Shown here one piece after another: positions 1-45,306 of a DNA stretch of 64,000 nt (within the stretch, counting starts at the first letter, position 1; the number at the start of each line of letters is the position of its first letter). The notes under the pieces were generated by a model. That model was given only the letters and a program-made list of their open reading frames with translations, was not told the origin of the DNA and searched no databases. The stretch covers positions 3,936,001 to 4,000,000 of the forward strand of contig CM000150.2 in NCBI GenBank assembly GCA_000004695.1, in the 5' to 3' direction. The position numbers and the translations under genes are program-made. Source of the DNA: Dictyostelium discoideum. Taxonomy: Eukaryota.

Positions 1-245
1 ATAATAATTTGTTTTGGATTATTTCTAAGAATCCATTGAATCATTTCTTGTTCTAATTTTGAATCTACTTTTTTCTTTCTACCTTGTTTTTTTGCCCTCT
101 CCTTTATTGATACACTATCCATTGGTTTTTTAATCCATCTCCTTATTGTTGTTTCATTTATTCCATATTTCTTTGCCACATGAGAAATTGGTGAACCTTC
201 TTTAACCTCTTGTAATATTTGTTGTGAAAATCCTGATTTAGTCAT
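1..245 (-). mobile_element. 5' part of a Tc1/mariner-pogo-like transposase ORF, truncated by the window edge. ATG at 245..243 on the minus strand; the ORF runs off the window start.
   Basis: Reverse-strand translation reads MTKSGFSQQILQEVKEGSPISHVAKKYGINETTIRRWIKKPMDSVSIKERAKKQGRKKKVDSKLEQEMIQWILRNNPKQII... This is an HTH (psq/CENP-B-type) DNA-binding N-terminus typical of pogo/Tc1 transposases. An AT-rich (TA)n/(TATA) tract at 246-360 could be terminal-repeat sequence. The family call is by analogy to Dictyostelium DDT/Tdd-type DNA transposons. Confidence 0.4.
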
Positions 246-24031: not shown

Positions 24032-25552
24032 ATGGGAATTAATGATAATGGAATTTATGGTTCTTTAAAAGGAAATTCAACGACTGGAGGTATTTATAAA
24101 ATGGGTGATCATAATACTGGATATGGTGAAAAAAATAATCAAAATAATAATAATAAATCAGGAGGTAAAACCATAGTTAATGGTGTTATTGTAAATTCAA
24201 ATCAACAAAAATTAAAAGGTGATGAAAATGAATTTGATCATTCTCAAGATGATAATGCAGATGAATTTAATAAATTTCCAAAAAAAGTAAAATATAATGA
24301 TTTATTATATTCAGTATTGTTTGCCATTCAAATGGTATTGTTTATTACAATGACAGTGATTGCCGGAACAAAACATCCAAATAAAAAAGAATTTGTTGAA
24401 TATTCATTACAAGGATTATTAATTATTGCAATTTCAATACCATTAATTTTGGCATTCTTTTTAATTTGGAAAAAGATTTTTAAAATCCATCCAACAAATA
24501 TGATTAAAACTAGTTTTTTTTCATTGATGATTACTGGTATTTTATTTATTGGATTGTTAATTGGCAATGGTTGGTACTCATGGGCAATTGTATTTGGCAT
24601 AACTTTAATTTCTTTAATATTCTTTTATTTTGCATTTAGGGATAAAATTCCATTCGTTGGAATAATAATATCATTGGTTTTAAAAATCATTGAAAAGTAT
24701 CCATCAACCTTGTTGGTTAGTTTCGTTTGTTTAATAATTTCTTGTGTTTATTATAATATTTGGCTATTTTCAGTAAGTTATAATTTCTATTATGATAGTT
24801 ATTGGACTGCCTGGAGTTATATGAAATTCATGTTCCTAGTATTCAATCTTTACTGGACACATTATGTAATCACCTATACTTGCTATAGTGTTGTATCTGG
24901 GTTGGTTGCAAGTTGGTATTTCTTTGCTGATGAAGATTTCAATGGTATGCCACCAAAACCATGCGCACACTCACTATATCGTTCCATGACTTCTTCATTT
25001 GGTTCAATTGCTTTTGGTTCTTTATTGGTTTGTTTGGTTCAAATGGTGCAATTCATTTGTAGAGGTTTTGCAAGAGTTCCAGGACTTACATCTTTGTTTT
25101 GTAATTGTCTCCAGTTTATTGCATTGATCTTCACAAGAATGTTATATACTTTTAACATTTACACATTCTCTATGGTTTCAATCTATGGTCAATCATTTTG
25201 TAATTCATCAAAGAAAACCTATAATTTAATGGTTAATAATAATGAAAAATTATTTGCAACTCATAATTATATGTTAATTACAATGCTATCAGTTTCTTTA
25301 TCAATGTTTTTAATAATTGGCTTCATTGTTACAATGATTATGGCAACAATTCAATTGGAAAACCAAGGTTGGTTATATGTACAATTGGTAATGTTTTTAT
25401 TCATCCTCTATAAACCATTTGATATTATCTTTAGTTCAGTTTTAACAATTTTAATGTGTTTAATTTCTGATCCAAATGCAATGGAAGTTACAAAACCAAA
25501 TACTTTTATTTTATTAAGTGAAACTTATGATTTTAAATCTTTAAATCCTTAA
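24032..25552 (+). CDS. Choline transporter-like (CTL/SLC44 family) multi-pass membrane protein, 506 aa.
   Basis: Single ORF. About 10 hydrophobic helices. Conserved-looking blocks FNLYWTHYVITYTCYSVVSGLVASWYF and SFGSIAFGSLLVCLVQMVQFI resemble the CTL 'plasma-membrane choline transporter' domain. Cytosolic N-rich N-terminus. Confidence 0.5.
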   Translation: MGINDNGIYGSLKGNSTTGGIYKMGDHNTGYGEKNNQNNNNKSGGKTIVNGVIVNSNQQKLKGDENEFDHSQDDNADEFNKFPKKVKYNDLLYSVLFAIQMVLFITMTVIAGTKHPNKKEFVEYSLQGLLIIAISIPLILAFFLIWKKIFKIHPTNMIKTSFFSLMITGILFIGLLIGNGWYSWAIVFGITLISLIFFYFAFRDKIPFVGIIISLVLKIIEKYPSTLLVSFVCLIISCVYYNIWLFSVSYNFYYDSYWTAWSYMKFMFLVFNLYWTHYVITYTCYSVVSGLVASWYFFADEDFNGMPPKPCAHSLYRSMTSSFGSIAFGSLLVCLVQMVQFICRGFARVPGLTSLFCNCLQFIALIFTRMLYTFNIYTFSMVSIYGQSFCNSSKKTYNLMVNNNEKLFATHNYMLITMLSVSLSMFLIIGFIVTMIMATIQLENQGWLYVQLVMFLFILYKPFDIIFSSVLTILMCLISDPNAMEVTKPNTFILLSETYDFKSLNP

Positions 25553-26022
25553 AAAAAAAAAAAAAAAATTTTAAAATTTTTTTTTTTTTTTTCTTTTTAA
25601 AAAATATATTTTTTTTATTTTAAAAATTAATAAATTATTAAATAAATAAATAAAATGAAATAAAATTAATAAATAAATATTTATTTTTTTTTAAATTTTT
25701 TAAATTTTATTTTTAATTTTTTTTTTTTTTTTTTTAATATTATTACTTTTATTTTTATCTTTGGTAAATTATAAATTGTAATATTTAAAAAAATGATGGT
25801 ATTGAAATCTCTTTATACAAAATAAAAAAATATCAACAAATTAATTTTTCGATATGGTATTGATGTTTAGATGATCATTTGTAAATCCACACTTTTTAAA
25901 TAAAATAAAATAAAAAAATAAAAACTTTTTCGGTTGTTTTTTTTTTTTTTTTTTTTTTTTTTTTCATTTTCAAAATAAAAAACAGACCAAATAACCCACA
26001 TATATATATTCAGATATTAAAA

Positions 26023-27455
<1,433 letters not shown>

Positions 27456-27576
27456 TATTATTTTTATTTTTTAACTTTTTGTATATATAATAAACTACTT
27501 TTTTATTTTTATTTTTATTTTATTTCCTATATTTGTTTACCTTTTTTTTATTATTTAATTTATAGTGTTTATATGT

Positions 27577-30500
27577 CTATTGTTTTAATAAATTTAATAC
27601 CATTTGTTCAGTAATATTCCAACCATCATAAGAACCAAAAGAAATTAAAAGTGATTTTGTATTTTTTGAAATTTTAAATTCTTTAGACATGTGATATTTT
27701 GTGGGAGTAAAATCTAAAGGATGAAAAGTTCTTAATCTGATACAAGTTTTATCATTTGATTCTGAAATCATTTTTTTCCAATTTATTAAAGTGGTTTCTT
27801 TGTAATTAAAATTTTTTTTTATCATTAGAAATATTTCATTTGTTGTTTGCAATTCACCATTTAATGAAATAATATTTAAAGTATTTATTTTTGTTTTTGA
27901 CCAACAACCTTCATTAAAGATTAAATTAATAATATTTTGTGCTACCCATGTTACTGGACTAATAAATAATGAAGTTGGTTCAATTGGGAAATATTTAGTA
28001 ACACTAATGGATTTAATTATTAATTGAAGCAAATCTCCACTATGACCAATACCAGTATGTGGATTTGAAAATATTGATGGTAATCTAATTGTCATTGCTG
28101 GAATACCTCTTGATGATGCTTCTAATAGTAAATGTTCACAGATAAGTTTACTTTGAATATAGCCACCTGGTAAATTATTTAAATTACTTAATGAAGGTAT
28201 TCCAACTTGGTATTCATCAAATTCGATTTCATCATTTAATTTTTGACCAAAGAAAATTGAAAATGAAGATAAATTTACAATTGGTATCATTGGTTTATTT
28301 GTACCTTTCGAAACTGATAGCTTTATAAACTCTTTAGTTGAGTCTACATTGGTTGGTTTAATTTCATCATAATTTGCATTTAAATTAATATCAGCACCAC
28401 AACTTAAAATTAAATTTACTTGATTTGAAATTTCTAAATACATTTTATCAGATAATCCAAGTTTACTCTTTCTTAAATCTCCACGGACTGGGAAAATCTT
28501 TTCCAATTCTGATTGTTCAAACATTTCAAATAATTTATGGTGTTTTAAATTGTCAATTATTTTATTCATTAAATCGATTTGGTCAGATAAATGACCTGAT
28601 CTTGTTAAACAATAAATTTTTGAACAGTTTTTCATTTTTACTAAATTCAATAAAAGATAACCTCCTAAAAATCCAGTTGAACCACTTAATAATATAACTT
28701 TATCCATTTTATTATCAATAATTAAATCTGATTTAATTGATGATGCAATTATTGTTTCATCTAATTTTGCTTCATTCTTCCAATATTCAAATGTTTTTGT
28801 TGTTGTTGTTATTTCATTGGTATTATTAACCACTGTACTACTTTTATTTTTACCTTCTTTCTTTTTATCTAATGAATTTGTTATAATTTTAATTGATGAT
28901 GAAATTGTATTTGTTTGAAGTTGTTGAATTGTAATAATATTACCTGATAATTCTTTATCTACCCAATTTTTTAATTGAACGATTGATAAAGAATCAGCAC
29001 CATATGCAGAAAGTTTAATATCGATATTAATCTTTGATATTTCAATTGATAATACCTCTGAAACTTTCTCTAAAAACATTTGATTTACAGAGTTTTTATT
29101 ATCCTGATTACCATCATGACCCAATTGATTAACTTTATTCTTTTCTTCTAAAGAAACTTGATAATCAATCTTTGAAAAATTATTTTTTTGTGGATTATAT
29201 TTTGTTATATTTGAGAAATTAAAACTTGAAACTATTAAATTTGTTGATAGTTCTTGATTTTGGATTTGTAAATCTAATGAACCTAAAATTGTATTGATTG
29301 AAAGTGGATTGAATCCTAAATTTTCAAACATTACTGAAACATTTTCATTTCTTGATACAAATCCAGTTGATTTTATTAAACCATAACTTGTGCAAATTGA
29401 TGGTAAGCCAAGTGATTTTCTATACTGTGAGAATGATTCTAAAACATTATTTGCACAAACATAACTACATTGGCTTTCAGAACCTAATGATGAGGTAACT
29501 GATGATGCAATTATAAAGTTTTTTAATTTCCATCCCCTTTTAATTGATTGATCGTGTAAAATGATTGCACCAATTGTTTTTGCGCCAAATGAAATATCCA
29601 GAGTATCCATATTGATAGCTTCTACATTCTTTGTTATTTGATGGAATGCATAGTGGAATATTGAATCAATGTTATCAATATCATTTGAAACTTCATCGAT
29701 TGCTTTTCCCATCGAGTTTATATCACCAACATCAACGCTCTTGAAATGAAATTTTATATGTTTATTTCTATTTACTAATAGTTCTAACTGCCATTTCATT
29801 GATGATTTTGAAAGGATAATTATATTTTCAACTAATGGCGCAAATTTAACTATCCATTTTATAATTTCAAAAACTATACCAGATTGACCAGTAACTATTA
29901 TATTCTTTCCTAAATTATTTATATTGATTTGATAATTTGATTTTAATAATGTAAAATCTAAATTGGAAGTTGAATTGATTTTCTCCTTTATTAAATTACC
30001 CACTAAATCTGTATCATGATTAACAACAATTTTACCAATATGTTTACGTTGATTAATATATTCAAATGCATTTTTAATATTAACATTTGAATATTGAGTT
30101 ATTGGTAAATTATTAATTAATTCATTATTTTCAATTGCTTTTGATATTGATTTTAATAATTTCTTTAAAATTGGTGCAGCTATAAAAAGTAATTCTACAT
30201 TATGATAACCATAGTTGAATTTAAATTTCTTATTATCAATATACTCATTTGAATTCAAATGAGTGATTGATAAATCTACAATTCTACCACTTTTTGAAAG
30301 ACAATTGAAATTTGAATCCATATAATCACTTGATAATGTATTTAATATTAAATCTACACCTGTTTTATCCGAGCCTAATTCTTTAAGTTTATCTTTTATT
30401 TTTTGAACATAACTCTTATCTCTTGTTGAATAAATACCTGTAATTAAAGATCCATAGGTGTCACGTAGATATTTCTCTTTCTCTGGTGATCCAACTGTAA

Positions 30501-33500
30501 GGAAAATATAAGAACAATGACCTTTCCATTTTAAAATATTTAATGAAGATAAACCAACACCACCGGATGCTGAATGAATTAAAATTGATTCATAATTTTT
30601 TAAATTACCAATATTGTAAATACTATGAAGAGATGTTGAATAAACTACTGGTATTGTTGATGCTTGTTCATGACTTAAGTTATTTGGTTTAAAATAAATT
30701 GAACCTGAATCTATAATAGATTTGGATGATGCAGTGTTATATGCAGTACCATAAACTTGGTCACCAACTTTAAATTCACTACAATTGTTTTTGGATACTC
30801 TTGTAATGACACCAGAAAAGTCACTACCAAATTCTGGGTCATTAATATCACCCGTTTTATGATTGACCATTTCAGGTGGCACACTTCCAATGTATGTAAG
30901 ATAATCTTTATAATTTAATGCAAATGATTTAATTTCAACTTGGACTTCAAATGGTTCTAAATCTTTTGTCATTGGTTTTAATTCATATTCTAAATTTGGT
31001 GATAAAACTGCTACTAAATCATTTTCAACTAAATCTTGATATGATTCAGATTTGAATTTTTTTCTAAGATTTTGTTCTTTCTTTATTCTTTCAAAATAAA
31101 CTTTACCATTTCTAATTAAATATTCTTTTTGAATAGATATTTTCTTATCTGTTAATAATTCAATCAATGATACTAAATTCTTTTCATTATTATTATGAGT
31201 GTATTCAATAATTGATTCTTTATCGAAATCTAATGTGAATAGTTGTAGTTGTTGAAATTCATCGAAATATCTTGCAGCACCTATAACTGATGATGCTAAA
31301 TAATTATCTTTTCTTGAATCTGATGTTATCAATACATGTTTGCACATTGAATTAAGTTTTAATAGTTTTCTATTAATTTCTATGTATTCAAATGTAATTG
31401 ATTTAAAATTATCCAATGTTAATTGTTCCATTGTTTTTATAAAATAAATCACAGATTTATCGGTTATTGATTGTTTTTCTACAAATTCATTAAATTTACT
31501 GATTGTTGATATTATACTTAATATCTTGTCATCAGTTGATTCTAGTGATTTTAAAAATTTATTACAAATTTCACTGTCATCATTACTATAAATTATAATT
31601 TGATCATAAGAGTCTATATTTGGATTTGGTGATAATTCTGATAGTAATTGTGGTTTTCTTGTTTGAATGATTGATTTTTTATCATTTGAAATGATTGTAT
31701 CTTTAAAATTACATTGATCTAATAACTCTTTTATTTCAATTAAGTTATTTCCATCATTATTTATTAATATTAATTGACCATTTGGTACCATTAAATTATA
31801 AATCATATAAAGTGTAGCCTTAATATCATTTGTTTCCTTTTCTAAATCATTTATTAATACAATATCATATTGTGAAGGTTTTAATTGATTATCTTCGAGT
31901 AACAAAGGATCATTAATGCTATAATCTCTATAAAGTATGCTAACACGTTCATTGATGTGTGATAGTTTATCCTTGATTGATGAGGTTAATGATTGTGGGA
32001 CACTACCAAAAGTATATTCAATATCAATTTCACACAATGGAAACTCTTTTAATAATTGATTAAATTTCTCTAAAACATTATTTGATGAATGAAATGTGGT
32101 TCCATTGTAATCTGCAAAACCGCTTGAAAAATCTAATATTCTAAATACCATTTTTTCATTTACAAATGGTACAAGTGATTGCTTAATAATTGTACCTACT
32201 AAAATATCATTTTGTCCTTTTTCTTGTTGGTAAAGTGATTCGAATGTTTGTGGTGGTAAAATTAATGAATCCTTTGATTGAAGGTAGGTGGAATATAATT
32301 CATTTGTTGGTGCTTCAATTTTTAATGAATCTTGAATTGGTGTTAATGAAGTACATGCTGCATTATCGATTTCAATTAATACAGTACCATCTTCTAACAT
32401 TACTACAATAGATGCAAAGTAAGAATCACCCATTTTTGCATTTAATGATGAATAAACATATACGTTTGTATGTTGATCCCTTGCTGATGGTATATTTGAT
32501 GAATATAGATTAAAACCTTCAATTCTATCGAAAACCAATTGACAATGTTCATCAACTAAACCAATCATACCATGTAAACAACAATCTAAAATTGAAGAGT
32601 TGAAAAATGACTTTTGATCTGGTAAATGTTTTGGAAGTTCTAATGAAACCACTGATAATGAACAATTATCACCTAAATAACACATCGATACAGCTTGAAA
32701 CATTCCACTATATGTTAAACCAGTTTTTAACTTTATGTGGTCATATAAATCTTCTTTTGTCAATTTGGTTAAATTGCAACGTTTTTCAATCAAATCTTTA
32801 ATATTGTATTTTTGATTGAATATTTTTAAAGACTTTTCACCATTGTGTTTAAATAATTGAAAATTACCAAACGATGATTGAATCCATTCATTCTTTTTTT
32901 GATCTTTAAAATGGAATAATACTTTATATTCTGTTTTTCCAGTTGGATAAATGTTTGTTTGTAAACAATGATTTACTGAATCATCTGTAAAAATAAATGG
33001 AGTACTAAATTCCAATGTACTAATAGTTATATCTTGTGATGGATAAATTTTTAATAAATTATCAATATAACCACAACCTGGGAAATAGAATTTCCCTTTT
33101 ACAACATGACCTTTTAGATATTGGAATGGTTTTCTCTTTATGTTTATAAATGTTTGATAAGATTTTACAAATGGTGAATCAGTAATTGAATTACCTAATA
33201 TATCAATTGGTGGACCTGTTAAATAATAATTCTCATAGAGTGAATTAATTTTCCAAAATTGTTTTTCATCCCATTGGTATAGTGGTAATTTATGAGTTGG
33301 TACTATTGATCTATTTATATTTTCAAATTGACATTTAAAGTTTATATTATACCCATTCTGACAATATAATTGAGAAATGGTTTGTCTTATCTCTTTAACA
33401 TCATTCTTTTTCTTGTGAAGTGGTGAATAAATTGAAATACTATCACCTTTTCCAAAGTAACTTGAATCTTTTGGTATCATTTGTTTTAAATAAAATTGTA

Positions 33501-35374
33501 AAGTTGGATGAGGAGCCAATTCAATAAAAACAATATCAGTTCCCAGTTGATTATTTTCTATATGTTTGTATAGATTTTCAATTGTTTGAGTAAAGTTCAC
33601 TGATTTTAAAATATTTTCATAAGTATATTTTGGTGAATATGGAGTAGTTTTATAATCAAATAAATTTGTTGTTACTGTAGAAAATATTGGTATTTCCGAT
33701 TCTTTGGATTTATAGTCCAATGAAAGGATATATTCTTTAATTGCTTTTTGACTTGATGTATGGAAAGATGATAATGAACCTAACATTGATGTAAATTCAC
33801 CTTTACTTTTTAATTCTTCTGAAATTTTATTTAGTTGATCCTCTTTTCCTCCAATTACAATTGATGTTGGTGAATTATAACATGAAATTTCTACATCAGG
33901 ATATCTTGATGAAAATTGTTCAATAAACTTTTCAGGTGAAATATTAATTGATAACATTCTACCACAACCTGTTGTTGTACTCTGGGCTATTGATCTATGA
34001 TAAATTAAATAACATTCAGTTTCTAAATCAATCATACCTGAACAATAAGCGGCAGTAACTTCACCAAGACTATGACCAACTATAAATGTTGGTTTAATAC
34101 CCCAGTGTTTATATAATTCGAATAGTGAAATTTGTACCATACAAATTGCAGGTTGTGCTAATGCTGGATTATGAATTGATTTCATATCATCTACCGGAAT
34201 GGATCTTAATTTCTCTAATATCGAGAAACCATAATATTTTGATAATTTATTATCCAACATATCCATAGTTTTTCTAAATATTGGTTCATTTTTATATAAT
34301 TCCAATGCCATTGTATTATATTGTGAACCTTGACCACAAAATACCATAATAATAATTGGATTCTTTGATTTTATTGAAATGTTTGATGATGTTGTTTTGA
34401 TTGTTTTAATATTATTATTAGTTGATATTAAATTATCTTTAAAATCATTCCAATTTGAACCTAAAATAACTGAACGTTGGTATAATGAATTTGATTTACT
34501 CATTATTTGTTCCTTTACAAAATCATTAAACTCCATAGTTTCTTGATTAAAATTTGAAATTAAAGATTGATATTGTTCTAATGATTTAGTTGAATTTGCT
34601 GAAAATGGAATTAAATATTCAATATTGTTCTGATGTTGTTGTTGTTTTAAATTTATTGTATTATTATTATCACTGCTACTATTATGATTATAATTGAAAT
34701 CTTTTAAAATAATACAAACGTTTGAACCTGTAACTCCAAAATTATTAACAGCCATGGTAATTTCTTTTTTTGGGAATGGAGTTGGTTCTACCACTACTTT
34801 TAAATTCCATTCATTAAATTTTATTAATGGATTTGGTGTTTTAAAATGTAAATTTGGTATAAAGTATCTATTTTTAAACATTAAACAGCATTTAACCAAT
34901 GATGCAATACCAGAAGATGCTTCACAATGACCAATCATTGATTTAAACGAACCTATTAATAATGGATTTTCTTTTGAATGATTGTCTTTGAAAATACTTG
35001 AAATACCTTCTACTTCAATTGGATCACCAACTGGAGTACCTGTACCATGTGCTTCAACATAGTCTACATCTTTTGCATTGATATTACCAGATGATAATGC
35101 CATTTTAATATTTTCAGCTTGTGATTGTGCTGATGGTGAATAGAAATTTGATTTATCACTATATCCATTACCATCAACATTTGAACTTGTACCTTTAATA
35201 ACACAATAAACTCTATCACCATCAATAATTGCTTGGTTTAAATCTTTTAATAATAATACCCCAATACATTCACTTTTTACATAACCATCTGCATTTGCAT
35301 CAAAACTTTTACATCTTCCGTCTTTACTTAACATATTCATATATGAAAATGATTTTGGGGTATTTGCATCTATT

Positions 35375-35407
<33 letters not shown>

Positions 35408-36087
35408 TTTATTTTAATTAATATATGTTCCATTATTTTTTTTTTTTTTTTTTTCTACTTACCAAAAATTAAACTTGTACCACCAACAATTGACATTTTA
35501 GAGTTTCCTTCAATGATAGATTTACAACCTAAAACCACAGCATTTGATGATGACGAACAAGCTGTATCTATTGTTATTGATGGACCATGAAAATCAAAAA
35601 TGTTTGAGACACGATTTGATGATGAATGTGATGATGATGAAAATATGTTGGTTTGAATTGAATCGATAGTTCTATTTAAATCTCTATATTCGTGAGTTGT
35701 ATTCCCAATGAAAACAGAGGTATTTGAACCGCGTAAATTAATTGGATCAATCATTGCATCTTCAATGGCTTCCCATGTACATTTTAAAAGTAAACGTTGT
35801 TGTGGATCTATTGCAGTTGCCTCTGGTGGACTTATACCAAAGAATAAAGGATCGAATGATTTAACTTCATCCATTGGTAATAAACCACCATATCTATTAT
35901 TAATCTCGCCCAATTTGTTGAAATTATCACTCCATCTTTCATTAGTTTCAATAATACCATCATAACCATTAACTAATTCTTTCCAAAGTTCACTTGGATT
36001 ACCTAAACTCTTGCCACTACCACCACCTGGTAATCTAAACCCAATTCCAATAATCCCAATACCATTATTTTCTTCTTTTAAAATCAT
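27577..36087 (-). CDS. Type I iterative-type reducing polyketide synthase, about 2805 aa, domain order KS-AT-DH-(degenerate C-MeT-like)-ER-KR-ACP-R (terminal NAD(P)-dependent reductase). Exons 36087..35463 and 35369..27577.
   Basis: E1 [23 protein letters not shown]... has the KS active-site Cys in IDTACSSS and ends TTT G|gtaagtag (phase 1). The 93-nt intron ends aaacaatag. E2 (D)[23 protein letters not shown]... continues the KS ([36 protein letters not shown]). AT: GQGSQY...GHSLGE (plus strand about 34028-34078). DH: [16 protein letters not shown] (about 33061-33108). Degenerate MeT motif I: [16 protein letters not shown] (about 32105-32150). ER: [19 protein letters not shown] (about 30550-30590). 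KR: [14 protein letters not shown] (about 29870-29910) plus YVCANN. ACP: [17 protein letters not shown] (about 28990-29010). R domain: [14 protein letters not shown]...[12 protein letters not shown] (about 28700-27577). Confidence 0.85.
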
Positions 36088-36230
36088 AATTTATTTTTTA
36101 AATTAATAACTATAAATGATTTATTGGATAATATATGTTAATAATTATATAATTAATTAATTTTTTTTTTTTTTTTTTTTTCATTTTATATGAAAAAATA
36201 AAAATAAAAAATTAAAAATATTTTATATCA

Positions 36231-36335
36231 CCAGACAGACAGATAGGTAGGTAGGTAGGTAGGTAGGTAGGTAGGTAGGTAGGCAGACAGGTAGGTAGGT
36301 AGGTAGGCAGACAGGTAGGTAGGTAGGCAGACACA
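36231..36335. repeat. GC-rich (TAGG)n/(GTAG)n tetranucleotide array punctuated by CAGACAG, about 150-250 bp upstream of the PKS start codon.
   Basis: Seen directly: ccagacagacagataggtaggtagg...ggcagacaggtaggtagg...ggcagaca. Highly unusual composition for this genome. Confidence 0.9.
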
Positions 36336-36432
36336 TTCATTAAAATCTATTTAAATAAAACAATCTAAGATGTTTATAATATTAAACTGTAAAAAAAAAA
36401 AAGTTTGGAAAAAAAAAAAAATAAAAAATAAA

Positions 36433-36560
36433 AGAGAACAGATTATGGTGTTTAGGAGCATTCTTCGAAGGATAAAAAAAAAATAATAATAATAGAGAAC
36501 AGATTATTTAATAAACATTTTTTCTAATAAAAAAAAAAAAAATAAAAAGAGAACAGATAA
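36433..36560. promoter_or_regulatory. Three direct copies of AGAGAACAGAT(T/A)A at 36433, 36494 and 36548, spaced 61 and 54 bp apart, in the PKS 5' flank. Candidate cis-regulatory repeats.
   Basis: Seen directly. Each copy is preceded by an A-run (aaaagagaacagattatgg, aatagagaacagattattt, aaaagagaacagataaaat). Function is inferred only from position upstream of the minus-strand pks and downstream of the TBC gene 3' end. Confidence 0.3.
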
Positions 36561-36661
36561 AATTTTAAATCCAAAAAATCTCAAAAAAAAAACAAAAAAA
36601 AAAAAAAAAAAACAATTTCTCCCGAAATTAATTTTTAATTGTTGTTATTAACAAACAATCC

Positions 36662-36693
<32 letters not shown>

Positions 36694-36851
36694 TATATAT
36701 TTTATTGTTCTTTTTCTTTATTCTCTCTTTAATTGTTTCTACTTTATTTTTTTTTTTTATTTTTTTTTTTTTTTTAATTTTTTTTTTTTTTTTTGTTTTT
36801 TTTTTTTTTTTTTTCTTGGTAGGGAAATAAAAAAAAAAATTATTAAAAATA

Positions 36852-38733
<1,882 letters not shown>

Positions 38734-43901: not shown

Positions 43902-45306
43902 TTAATTATTATATTTTGAAGCGATTCTTGCTAAATTAAAACCAAATTCATTAATTAAATTTGTTTTTTCTTGATTTGCTAAAACTGAAACTACAATGTT
44001 TTCTTGAGGTATCATTACTAATACAGTACTACCACCAACTGCATTACCAGTGTGATAGATTATATCGGTATTATTTTTTGAAGAAGGTTGTTTAAACCAA
44101 CCAGTGCAATAGTTCATGGTATTCTTTCCAGTTAATGGTGGATTTGGTTTAAAGAGATGATCAATTGTGGATTGCTTTAAAAGTCGACCACCTAAAACGG
44201 TTGAACCAAGTTTACAAAGATCTTCAGCAGTTGAGATGAAACCACCACCTGGCCATTTATAACTGGAATTTGTGAATTCAGCATTACATAATGAGACTCT
44301 AGCTTCGTCGTATCCATTTGCTGAGATCTCTTGTTGAGTTCTTGGTGTGAATTTTAGAGCATACTGTTTTGATCTACCTGGAATTAAAGAATCATGTTCA
44401 TCAGGTTGAGTATCAAACATACCGCATGGTCTGAAAACTGAATCTCTCATAAATGTTGTAAAACTTTTACCAGATGCTGATTCAATTACTAAACCTAATA
44501 AAGTGTAACCAAAAGTTGAATAATTAAAATAATGACCTGGTTTAGTTTTCTCTAAATCTTTTACCCATGGATTCTCTTTAAACATTTCTAAAGGATTTCT
44601 ATGACCCCATGGATTATATTCTTTATCAGTTTTAAATTTCTCTACACTATAAAATTCTGCTTTTCTATTTAACCCATAATGTCTAATACCTCCTAAATGT
44701 GATGCAACATGATTAATAGTTAAAACATCATCTGGAAAATTTGGACTATTCTTCCATTCTGGTACATGTTTTTGAATTGAATCTGAAAATTTAATTTTCC
44801 CCTTTAATTATTAATTAAATTGGATTAATATTTTTTTTTTTTTATTATTTATTATTTATTATTTATTATTATTATTAACTTACTTGTTCAAATAATACAC
44901 CTAAACCAATTGAAGTTAAAGCTTTTGAAATACTCGCAACTCTTAATTTACTTGAAGTTTCCATTGGAATTACATTTTCGACATCAGCAAAACCAAATGC
45001 TTCTTTGTATATTGTTTCACCATTTGATTGAATACAAACACTTATTCCTGGTACACAATTTCCTTCTTTCCATGATAAAATCTCTTTTTTTAATTCTCTA
45101 TTCATATTTTTTTTATTTTTAATTATTATTGGTGATAATGTTGAACTATTAACAATACATTGAGTTGGTGATTTACAACATACACTATTATTTGTTAAAG
45201 TTGTTGTTTTTGTTGTTGTTGTTGGTTTATCTTCACAATTTAAAATTGTTGAAAATCCACTAATACCAACAAATAATAATGATGTTCCTTTTATTAATGA
45301 GTTCAT
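43902..45306 (-). CDS. Serine beta-lactamase-like / LACTB-like (penicillin-binding-protein fold) hydrolase, about 440 aa. Exons 45306..44884 and 44801..43902.
   Basis: E1 MNSLIKGTSLLFVGISGFSTILN... (signal-peptide or TM-like N-terminus) contains the S-x-x-K catalytic motif in VASISKALT and ends GAA CAA|gtaagt. The 82-nt intron ends ttaattaaag. E2 GKIKFSDSIQKHVPEW... carries the Y-x-N element (HYFNYSTFGY) and HTG (KTG-variant) in IYHTGNAVGGS. Confidence 0.6.

Follow-up and report, generated by a model that had tools for sequence, protein, structure and literature searches.

The terminal R domain of MxaA, from the bacterial myxalamid PKS-NRPS, comes after a PCP within a modular assembly line and performs a four-electron reduction to an alcohol. 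The thioester reductase (TR) of the coelimycin polyketide synthase (PKS) of Streptomyces coelicolor ends a type I PKS after an acyl carrier protein (ACP), again in a modular, bacterial system; transamination then turns the coelimycin aldehyde into a polyketide alkaloid. Thioester reductases of PKSs and NRPSs carry out a 2-electron or a 2+2-electron reduction, giving an aldehyde or an alcohol (PMC13303079). Among eukaryotic megasynthases, reductive release has been proposed for the R domain of Cryptosporidium CpFAS1 and the TR of Toxoplasma TgPKS2 (PMC2995488; bioRxiv 10.1101/2023.05.23.541938). These resemble the gene analyzed here by description, but they are multimodular and non-iterative enzymes.

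In Dictyostelium discoideum, the Steely enzymes StlA (Pks1) and StlB (Pks37) have the same fatty acid synthase (FAS)-like type I core as the present gene with a C-terminal offloading domain, a type III chalcone synthase which takes the acyl chain as starter and which this gene lacks. The D. discoideum fatty acid synthase Pks16 has the same FAS-like core, an inactive methyltransferase (MT) and catalytic motifs of identical form (PMC12828403). Pks16 ends at the ACP without a TR and shows high vegetative expression. The earlier note traced the characterised dictyostelid PKS products to Steely fusions, a view now outdated, as Pks5 produces dictyodenes and Pks16 is a fatty acid synthase (PMC9618038, PMC12828403). 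Post-ACP offloading domains are present in 21 of the 40 D. discoideum PKSs, two of them chalcone synthases and the rest TRs (PMC12828403). The same TR terminus was found in 46 of the best 120 relatives of the present gene, from several dictyostelid genera. TR is the commonest release domain among the 40 D. discoideum PKSs and the architecture is ordinary; the rarity previously implied for R-domain release was overstated. Literature searches found no product assigned to any of the ∼19 TR-type Dictyostelium PKSs and no biochemical or genetic data on this enzyme or any other of that type, so the product can still be called an uncharacterised metabolite.

The gene lies on the minus strand at positions 27577..36087, start to stop codon, of the window, which is the whole 64,000-nucleotide stretch analyzed. 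Open reading frames and splicing gave two exons, exon 1 at 36087..35463 (625 nt) and exon 2 at 35369..27577 (TAG stop included), with a spliced coding sequence of 8418 nt, 2805 aa and no internal stops. The single intron, at 35370..35462 on the minus strand (93 nt, GTAAGT...ACAATAG, phase 1), follows codon 208 inside the ketosynthase (KS), 31 codons downstream of the active-site Cys177 encoded in exon 1, as had been described. Single introns of 66 nt and 84 nt occupy the same site in two orthologs (L007 and L008), and tblastn alignments to two others (L004 and L006) split at aa 208/209. An independent annotation (GCA_054883475.1, ACTFIT_007390) has the same 2805-aa model with one residue different, in line with the expected protein length. 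G+C across the gene was 20-32% per 500-base window; an 8.4-kb open frame at this composition, together with HMM E-values down to 1e-64, cannot have arisen by chance. The gap between the stop codon and the convergent drpp30 gene is only ∼120 bp, and the TR alignment reaches within a few residues of the C-termini of paralogs, which leaves no space for an additional 3′ exon encoding a different terminal domain.

Domains were assigned by a Pfam profile search of the 2805-aa translation. Pfam matches and motifs gave the order KS-AT-DH-(dead MT)-ER-KR-ACP-TR, in agreement with the order first read from the sequence. The KS (aa 9-384; 34843..36063, minus strand, as for all domains) matched PF00109 (E = 9e-64) and PF02801 (E = 3e-34), with a KS C-terminal extension at aa 387-508. 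Its triad of Cys177 (35557-35559), His316 and His356, in the motifs DTACSS, HGTGT and IGH, aligned with all paralogs. The acyltransferase (AT; aa 551-841; 33472..34344) matched PF00698 (E = 6e-45), with Ser642 in GHSLGE and an SFHT motif that the alignment showed to be common to this gene and Pks16. The dehydratase (DH; aa 956-1219; 32338..33129) scored 29 bits against PF14765, above its cutoff, and carries His963 in HxxxGxxxxP and Asp1137 in DxxxH; the score of the region against PF21089 was below cutoff. The ketoreductase (KR) catalytic subdomain (aa 2031-2207; 29374..29904) matched PF08659 (E = 5e-24), with the nucleotide motif TGQSGI and Tyr2178 in YxxxN in the same form as in the active enzyme Pks16. 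The ACP (aa 2295-2385; 28840..29112) matched PF23297 (E = 7e-33) and PF00550, with the phosphopantetheine Ser2335 (28990-28992) in YGADSL. In the alignment with 12 paralogs, Cys177, His316, His356, Ser642 and Ser2335 are all matched.

The region between DH and the enoylreductase (ER) holds a degenerate MT remnant (∼aa 1270-1415; 31750..32187) with a sub-threshold Methyltransf_12 match (E = 0.009, 17 bits versus a cutoff of 30) covering only profile positions 58-98, and its earlier description as degenerate is fair. Compared with MT-positive paralogs, the SAM motif LE(F/A)GGGT is substituted by another 14-letter stretch and a ∼35-residue segment past motif II is absent. The MT is inactive in this gene and in Pks16 alike, and its loss does not exclude membership of the family. 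Judged against the paralogs, including the experimentally active Pks16, all catalytic motifs other than the SAM motif are intact.

The ER (aa 1681-1991; 30022..30954) matched PF08240 (ADH_N) and PF13602 (ADH_zinc_N_2) and completes, by Pfam and alignment, a KR, DH and ER set with catalytic motifs. A full reducing set does not ensure a saturated product, since Pks5, with the order KS-AT-DH-MT-ER-KR-ACP, yields polyenes, the heptaene dictyodenes (PMC9618038); the Pks16 paper also stresses that a processing domain, though functional, 'may not operate every round' (PMC12828403). It is possible, as a minority reading, that the reducing domains of the present enzyme are used selectively, as in Pks5, and that the TR frees a polyketide aldehyde or alcohol that is partly unsaturated or hydroxylated, in place of a saturated chain. 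The intact ER NADPH motif (HSASGGVG) and the dN/dS of the ER, at 0.10-0.15 the lowest of all domains, argue against this. Programmed skipping and full reduction are not distinguishable from sequence.

The TR occupies aa 2436-2805, the end of the protein (27580..28689), directly after the ACP, and was called from PF07993, TIGR01746 and a structure model. PF07993 (NAD_binding_4) matched aa 2436-2688 over the full profile (positions 1-258 of 258) with E = 4.9e-43 and 147.6 bits versus a cutoff of 20.1; TIGR01746 gave E = 4.5e-45. Neither refuting condition of the earlier note, a C-terminus with no such match or an extra 3′ exon with another terminal domain, was borne out. The Rossmann motif GSTGFLGG (aa 2438-2445; 28660-28683) fits TGxxGxxG and corresponds to GATGFLGA in MxaA. 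A Ser/Thr-Tyr-Lys triad is formed by Ser2576/2577 in VNLSSFS and Tyr2612/Lys2616 in GGYIQSK, with YIQSK at aa 2612-2616 (28147-28161). The two motifs that the earlier note had assigned to the R domain, TGFLGG and the YIQSK dyad, were thus both located, and GSTGFLGG and YIQSK are identical in five orthologs. The Tyr and Lys (alignment columns Y218 and K222) do not vary among the 14 TR domains aligned, nor in the orthologs; the Rossmann motif, Ser and YxxxK together are invariant in the five orthologs and intact in nearly all of the 14 aligned paralog TRs.

An AlphaFold model of the TR had a pLDDT of 89.4 and a pTM of 0.91. In Foldseek comparisons it aligned with the MxaA and coelimycin-PKS TR structures at TM 0.79-0.85 over 404-414 columns, and the best 26 PDB matches were all terminal thioester or carboxylate reductase domains. 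MxaA (4u7w, 4w4t) was the best match by both sequence (E = 3.7e-28) and structure, at only 24-25% identity in the structural alignment; MxaA differs in that its R domain follows a PCP and this TR an ACP. The coelimycin TR (8v1x) was second (E = 5e-21, TM 0.79-0.84). TGFLG and GGYxQSK aligned in these sequence matches. On the modelled structure, the C-terminal domain has a genuine terminal thioester reductase fold of two subdomains, a Rossmann subdomain and a C-terminal substrate-binding subdomain.

Other TR-PKSs of D. discoideum, among them pks21 (DDB_G0282029), pks14, pks30, pks45 and DDB_G0271530, also follow the order KS-AT-DH-(MT or dead MT)-ER-KR-ACP-TR and share the TR motifs of this gene. 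Of the full-length AX4 paralogs identified, pks21 is the closest, at ∼48% identity; it likewise has no MT match. The N-terminal half of the present gene is closest to the MT-positive pks14/DDB_G0271530 group, its own MT being dead. TR identity to D. discoideum TR paralogs was 27-48%, and the gene is at a distinct chromosome 1 locus with ≤60% identity to any paralog.

Whole-gene dN/dS was 0.21-0.26, with core domains at 0.10-0.24 (p down to 1e-33 versus neutrality). The TR gave 0.31-0.42, below neutral (p = 3e-5 to 7e-4) and as relaxed as the degenerate MT region (0.31-0.42). This relaxation and the TIGR01746 score of 154.5 bits, below the NCBI trusted cutoff of 213.35, count against reductive release. 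They would suit a C-terminal domain that is silent or non-reductive, a Dieckmann/Claisen-type R* or a structural appendage, with the chain leaving by another route; redox-inactive R* domains occur in fungal PKS-NRPSs. Such a role is very unlikely here. The reductase motifs are intact and the TR is under significant purifying selection; Pfam identified no NRPS module in the protein that could give an aminoacyl substrate for tetramate formation, and no release domain other than the TR. No thioesterase domain was identified in the 2805-aa protein and there was no Pfam match to the chalcone/stilbene synthase family, the C-terminus being wholly taken up by the TR.

Besides the window, five other strains or species retain the 8.4-kb frame intact, and the TR and ACP motifs, including that around Ser2335, are identical among the five orthologs. 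The locus carries the gene in D. discoideum, D. cf. discoideum, D. citrinum and D. dimigraforme, in an orientation that varies between species. In D. citrinum and D. dimigraforme, the syntenic products of 2883 and 2887 aa have no Pfam record, and a reading that these species have no PKS there was discarded when tblastn found it, the orthologs being 79-90% identical. No syntenic copy was found in D. firmibasis from gene tables and tblastn, and the gene is lineage-restricted. A decaying or non-functional paralog would fit this absence, the lineage-specific gain and loss in the fast-turnover PKS family (PMC3188802) and the five pks pseudogenes of AX4. We regard decay as highly improbable, given the frame kept open in all of these strains and species, the overall dN/dS, the p-values of the core and the intact catalytic motifs of core and TR.

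The favoured reading, to which we assign a probability of roughly 0.78, is that the gene, very probably pks3, encodes a functional type I PKS of the iterative, FAS-like (highly reducing) kind, with reductive release. The AT would charge the phosphopantetheine arm of ACP Ser2335 with malonyl units, and repeated extension by the KS (Cys177/His316/His356), with β-carbon reduction by KR, DH and ER, would build a chain whose length, like the number of rounds with full reduction, is a matter of prediction. C-methylation would be absent, as the MT has no SAM-binding motif. Provided that the enzyme is catalytically active, as its motifs suggest, the finished acyl-S-ACP thioester would be reduced by the SDR-type TR, probably with NAD(P)H as cofactor, and not hydrolysed, using the GSTGFLGG Rossmann motif and the Ser2576/7-Tyr2612-Lys2616 triad. 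The product would be an aldehyde after a 2-electron reduction or, after a second round, a primary alcohol; which of these is formed is likewise a prediction. Reductive release of an unmethylated chain as aldehyde or alcohol is the best-supported mechanism because of the PF07993 match, the TR fold, the conserved motifs and a dN/dS below neutral, and the original prediction of such release is in keeping with this evidence.

The window and AX4 chromosome 1 are collinear over DDB_G0269964-0269998, and a neighbour gene is identical to DDB_G0269978 of that 4.92-Mb AX4 chromosome. Exact-sequence look-ups gave only GCA_054883475.1, even for a protein shared with AX4, and so do not discriminate between strains. 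Two window genes, the PKS and a WD40 gene, are of kinds missing from the in-series AX4 descriptions; the pair fits the consecutive out-of-series IDs of pks3 (DDB_G0271000) and a WD40 gene (DDB_G0271002). On this circumstantial evidence the gene is very probably AX4 pks3. UniProt Q55CN6, putatively PKS3, is two accessions from the neighbour Q55CN8. Neither the homologs nor the 90% cluster contained an AX4-named protein, which had raised the possibility that AX4 lacks the gene or holds only a pseudogene of it. The same search missed the orthologs of D. citrinum and D. dimigraforme, which tblastn recovered, so the homolog database is not exhaustive; with the dictyBase ID pattern pointing to pks3, this possibility was rejected as unsupported. 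The 'pks3' of PMC9489281 refers to primer names.

Within the window no tailoring enzymes were adjacent to the PKS and no aminotransferase was evident near it. The nearest tailoring candidate is a beta-lactamase-fold gene 7.8 kb away, and nothing ties it to the PKS; the same holds for distant MFS and FUSC-like membrane proteins in the window.

By RNA-seq, pks3 is induced transiently at 8-16 h of development and is prestalk/stalk-enriched, with vegetative expression near zero (0.3 TPM) and low expression overall (PMC6198379). As the identification is circumstantial, these data apply only if the gene is pks3, in which case they suggest a developmental or ecological lipid-like metabolite and not bulk fatty acid synthesis, the role of Pks16. 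They also bear on whether the enzyme could be a bulk-lipid fatty aldehyde or alcohol synthase, for wax, ether lipids or similar. The FAS-like, unmethylated core would suit that function, and TR-bearing Cavenderia relatives carry the source label 'putative fatty acid synthase'. It is nevertheless unlikely, given this expression pattern if the gene is pks3, a vegetative fatty acid synthase already provided by Pks16, and the absence of the gene from the syntenic site in D. firmibasis, which speaks against a housekeeping function. More speculatively, and with a low probability, the reductively released fatty aldehyde or alcohol, or an amine derived from it, may be an unrecognised prestalk/stalk-stage signal or a defence compound.

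As a discovery the finding carries little weight, the gene being very probably annotated as pks3 in the model strain and the 2025 Pks16 structural survey having already described the TR-terminated class. Its value is practical: this is an intact, constrained, unmethylated reducing PKS with a complete set of domains, a genuine reductase at its C-terminus and, if it is pks3, a defined developmental window (8-16 h, prestalk/stalk). An aldehyde-releasing terminus would be a chemically distinctive handle for metabolomics. A signal or defence product, if confirmed, would be the first assigned among the ∼19 TR-type Dictyostelium PKSs, and solving any one of these would open that half of the Dictyostelium repertoire.

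The PKS gene lies on the minus strand at 27577-36087. An ORF scan found its exons as two ORFs, 36087..35455 and 35340..27577, which are joined by a canonical 93 nt intron (35462..35370, minus strand, GTAAGT...ACAATAG). The spliced CDS of 8418 nt encodes 2805 aa with zero internal stops. Cys177 of the KS is encoded by exon 1 and the intron falls after codon 208. An earlier note had proposed this 2805-aa product, with a 93 nt intron in the KS past the active-site Cys exon; the ORFs, the splice sites and ACTFIT_007390, the same gene in the independently annotated assembly GCA_054883475.1, all agree. The ACTFIT_007390 model of 2805 aa is identical except for one residue, and the two DNAs are 99.6% identical across 28.6 kb.

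About 120 bp separate the stop codon from drpp30, a gene that converges on the PKS. An extra 3′ exon encoding another terminal domain is excluded for practical purposes, because only this ~120 bp is available and the TR aligns with its paralogs as far as their own C-terminal ends. The gap between PKS and drpp30 (RNase P p30 subunit, ∼26020-27455, plus strand) is 27456-27576, so that the two genes must have 3′ UTRs or terminators that touch or overlap. A (TAGG)21 microsatellite at 36236-36327, alternatively scored as 3.8 copies of a 24-nt unit, forms a G+C-rich island within A/T-rich 5′ intergenic DNA, 150-240 bp upstream of the PKS start codon.

A Pfam search identified KS, KS C-terminal extension, AT, DH, ER (ADH_N + ADH_zinc_N_2), KR, ACP and NAD_binding_4; no thioesterase or chalcone-synthase domain was found in the 2805-aa protein. 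Catalytic motifs were compared by alignment with 12 paralogs, one of which, Pks16, is a fatty acid synthase established by experiment. Family-typical forms were seen for the Cys-His-His triad of KS, AT GHSLGE and SFHT, DH HxxxGxxxxP and DxxxH, ER HSASGGVG, KR TGQSGI and YxxxN, and ACP YGADSL. MT-positive paralogs carry RILE(F/A)GGGT, in contrast to the corresponding 16-residue stretch of the PKS, in which ~35 residues past motif II are also absent and the methyltransferase HMM trace is only 17 bits (cutoff, 30). From sequence, an unmethylated product is therefore expected. The domain string KS-AT-DH-(degenerate MeT)-ER-KR-ACP-R read previously was thus reproduced, with the MT alone degenerate. 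The ER nucleotide motif is HSASGGVG in the PKS; it is degenerate in two AX4 paralogs, P0007 (DDB_G0271530, HLGSDGFG) and P0046 (DDB_G0295667, HLGSDSFG), which may be enoylreductase-inactive PKSs.

The predicted terminal R domain was recovered as a full-length NAD_binding_4 match at aa 2436-2688 (E = 4.9e-43). The NCBIfam thioester-reductase model TIGR01746 matched with E = 4.5e-45, yet under its strict cutoff. Both motifs noted for the domain, TGFLGG and YIQSK, are present (GSTGFLGG, aa 2438-2445; YIQSK, aa 2612-2616). The closest solved protein by sequence was the myxalamid MxaA terminal reductase (E = 3.7e-28); the type I PKS thioester reductase 8v1x matched with E = 5e-21, and the Rossmann and GGYxQSK motifs of both align exactly with the TR. 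An AlphaFold model built on an alignment of 14 dictyostelid TR domains, in which the YxxxK Tyr and Lys are invariant, was confident (pLDDT 89.4, pTM 0.91). Its best 26 PDB structure matches were all terminal thioester/carboxylate reductase domains, headed by MxaA and the coelimycin PKS TR (TM 0.79-0.85). The match takes in the C-terminal substrate-binding subdomain, as the alignment spans ∼410 columns.

Selection was estimated by the Nei-Gojobori method with coding DNA from two diverged orthologs (88% and 93% protein identity), both with a single intron at the PKS position, giving three pairs that are not independent of each other. dN/dS was 0.21-0.26 for the whole PKS, 0.10-0.24 for KS, AT, DH, ER and KR, and 0.31-0.42 for the degenerate MT/structural KR region. 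The TR also gave 0.31-0.42, significantly under neutrality (binomial p = 3e-5 to 7e-4, three non-independent pairs); its constraint is thus weaker than that of the core. The TR motifs are identical across five orthologs. The TR (27580-28689) is evolving as fast as the dead MT (31750-32187), its high ratio being due in part to an unusually low dS (0.13, compared with 0.23 overall).

PF07993 was present in 46 of the 120 best relatives from a protein homology search. BLAST with the TR returned the same 46, with the domain at the extreme C-terminus every time. Their hosts are D. discoideum, D. cf. discoideum, D. citrinum, D. firmibasis, D. purpureum, D. dimigraforme, Polysphondylium violaceum and Cavenderia fasciculata, and cluster look-up tied several to the named AX4 genes pks14, pks21, pks30 and pks45. 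An offloading enzyme follows the ACP in 21/40 AX4 PKSs, a chalcone synthase in two of them and a thioester reductase in all others (2025 Pks16 structure paper, PMC12828403). On this count the TR terminus is no exception but the majority release domain in D. discoideum, and the rarity implied in the earlier note is overstated. The D. citrinum and D. dimigraforme orthologs, though 79-90% identical, escaped the homology search, and no AX4 entry for the gene turned up in it either, so absence from it is weak evidence.

The choline-transporter-like neighbor (24032..25552, plus strand) is identical to AX4 DDB_G0269978 (UniProt Q55CN8) on chromosome 1 (4,923,596 bp). Pfam matches of the window ORFs were set beside an expression table that follows dictyBase order (PMC6198379 supplement 2), and the window proved collinear with DDB_G0269964-0269998, running MFS, ddx1, ARM, sas10, two unknowns, CTL-like DDB_G0269978, drpp30 DDB_G0269980, TBC RabGAP DDB_G0269982, tbcE DDB_G0269990 and rnf10 DDB_G0269996. 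The PKS falls between DDB_G0269980 and DDB_G0269982 and has no in-series ID; a 667-aa WD40 gene is also out of series. Two consecutive out-of-series IDs, DDB_G0271000 (pks3) and DDB_G0271002 (WD40), match this pair. Chromosome 1 also carries stlA, which has a chalcone-synthase domain, and presumably pks2. The latter is grouped with pks22/23/44/45 (PMC12828403). With collinearity, the out-of-series PKS and WD40 IDs, and stlA and pks2 set apart, the gene is very probably pks3 (probability ∼0.85). UniProt Q55CN6 is probably PKS3.

Provided that the gene is pks3, the expression tables of Kin et al. (PMC6198379) apply to it, with values of 0.18, 0.56, 21.6, 90.1, 83.9, 33.6 and 16.5 at 0, 4, 8, 12, 16, 20 and 24 h. 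Expression is 8.7 in prestalk versus 2.7 in prespore, TPM values are 4.3 (stalk), 0.31 (vegetative), 0.25 (cup) and 0.045 (spore), and pks3 is in the stalk-specific gene list (PMC6198379). It is moderately down-regulated during aggregation in a phosphopantetheinyl-transferase mutant (2025 global PKS study, PMC12625978). Read counts of DDB_G0269978 rise from single digits to ∼1000-2000 late in a developmental series (PMC4403905 supplement), a timing unlike that of pks3, so the two neighbors are not co-regulated.

No tailoring enzyme adjoining the PKS was found among the window ORFs by Pfam. Orthologs occupy the same locus in D. citrinum (L004, 14260-21524, plus strand) and D. dimigraforme (L006, 14555-21512, plus strand) with the strand relative to drpp30 reversed: there they are on the same strand as drpp30 and 3′ of it, and in D. 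discoideum and D. cf. discoideum on the opposite strand. No PKS was found at the syntenic D. firmibasis locus (L005, 11808-16412, compared with window 26000-38600), where RabGAP has the opposite orientation to that in the window. This locus is rearrangement-prone; the strand changes and the D. firmibasis absence fit what is known of dictyostelid PKS genes, which turn over in a lineage-specific way (PMC3188802). Upstream of the PKS, 7.8 kb from its start, is a two-exon beta-lactamase-fold gene (43902-45306, minus strand; PF00144, E = 2.5e-30 and 1.3e-09) that also occurs in D. firmibasis, which has no PKS there. Some fungal PKSs have partner esterases and acyltransferases of this fold; no link between this gene and the PKS was seen at the locus.

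The best-supported reading is iterative, FAS-like synthesis with reductive release. An unmethylated chain would be built on ACP Ser2335 and released by the TR through NAD(P)H-dependent thioester reduction as an aldehyde, which a second reduction would convert to the alcohol. PKS/NRPS thioester reductases in general release chains as aldehyde or alcohol (PMC13303079). Sequence cannot give the chain length, the degree of saturation or a 2-electron versus 4-electron outcome; saturation is not readable from the domain set because Pks5 has a complete set of reducing domains yet makes polyenes. Characterized functions are reported for only three pks genes (PMC12625978), and a literature search found no paper characterizing any Dictyostelium TR domain. 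The observation of a terminal reductase is confirmed, and the reductive release proposed from it is supported by the domain and its motifs. The gene is already annotated, very probably as pks3, and its class is already described and numerically dominant.
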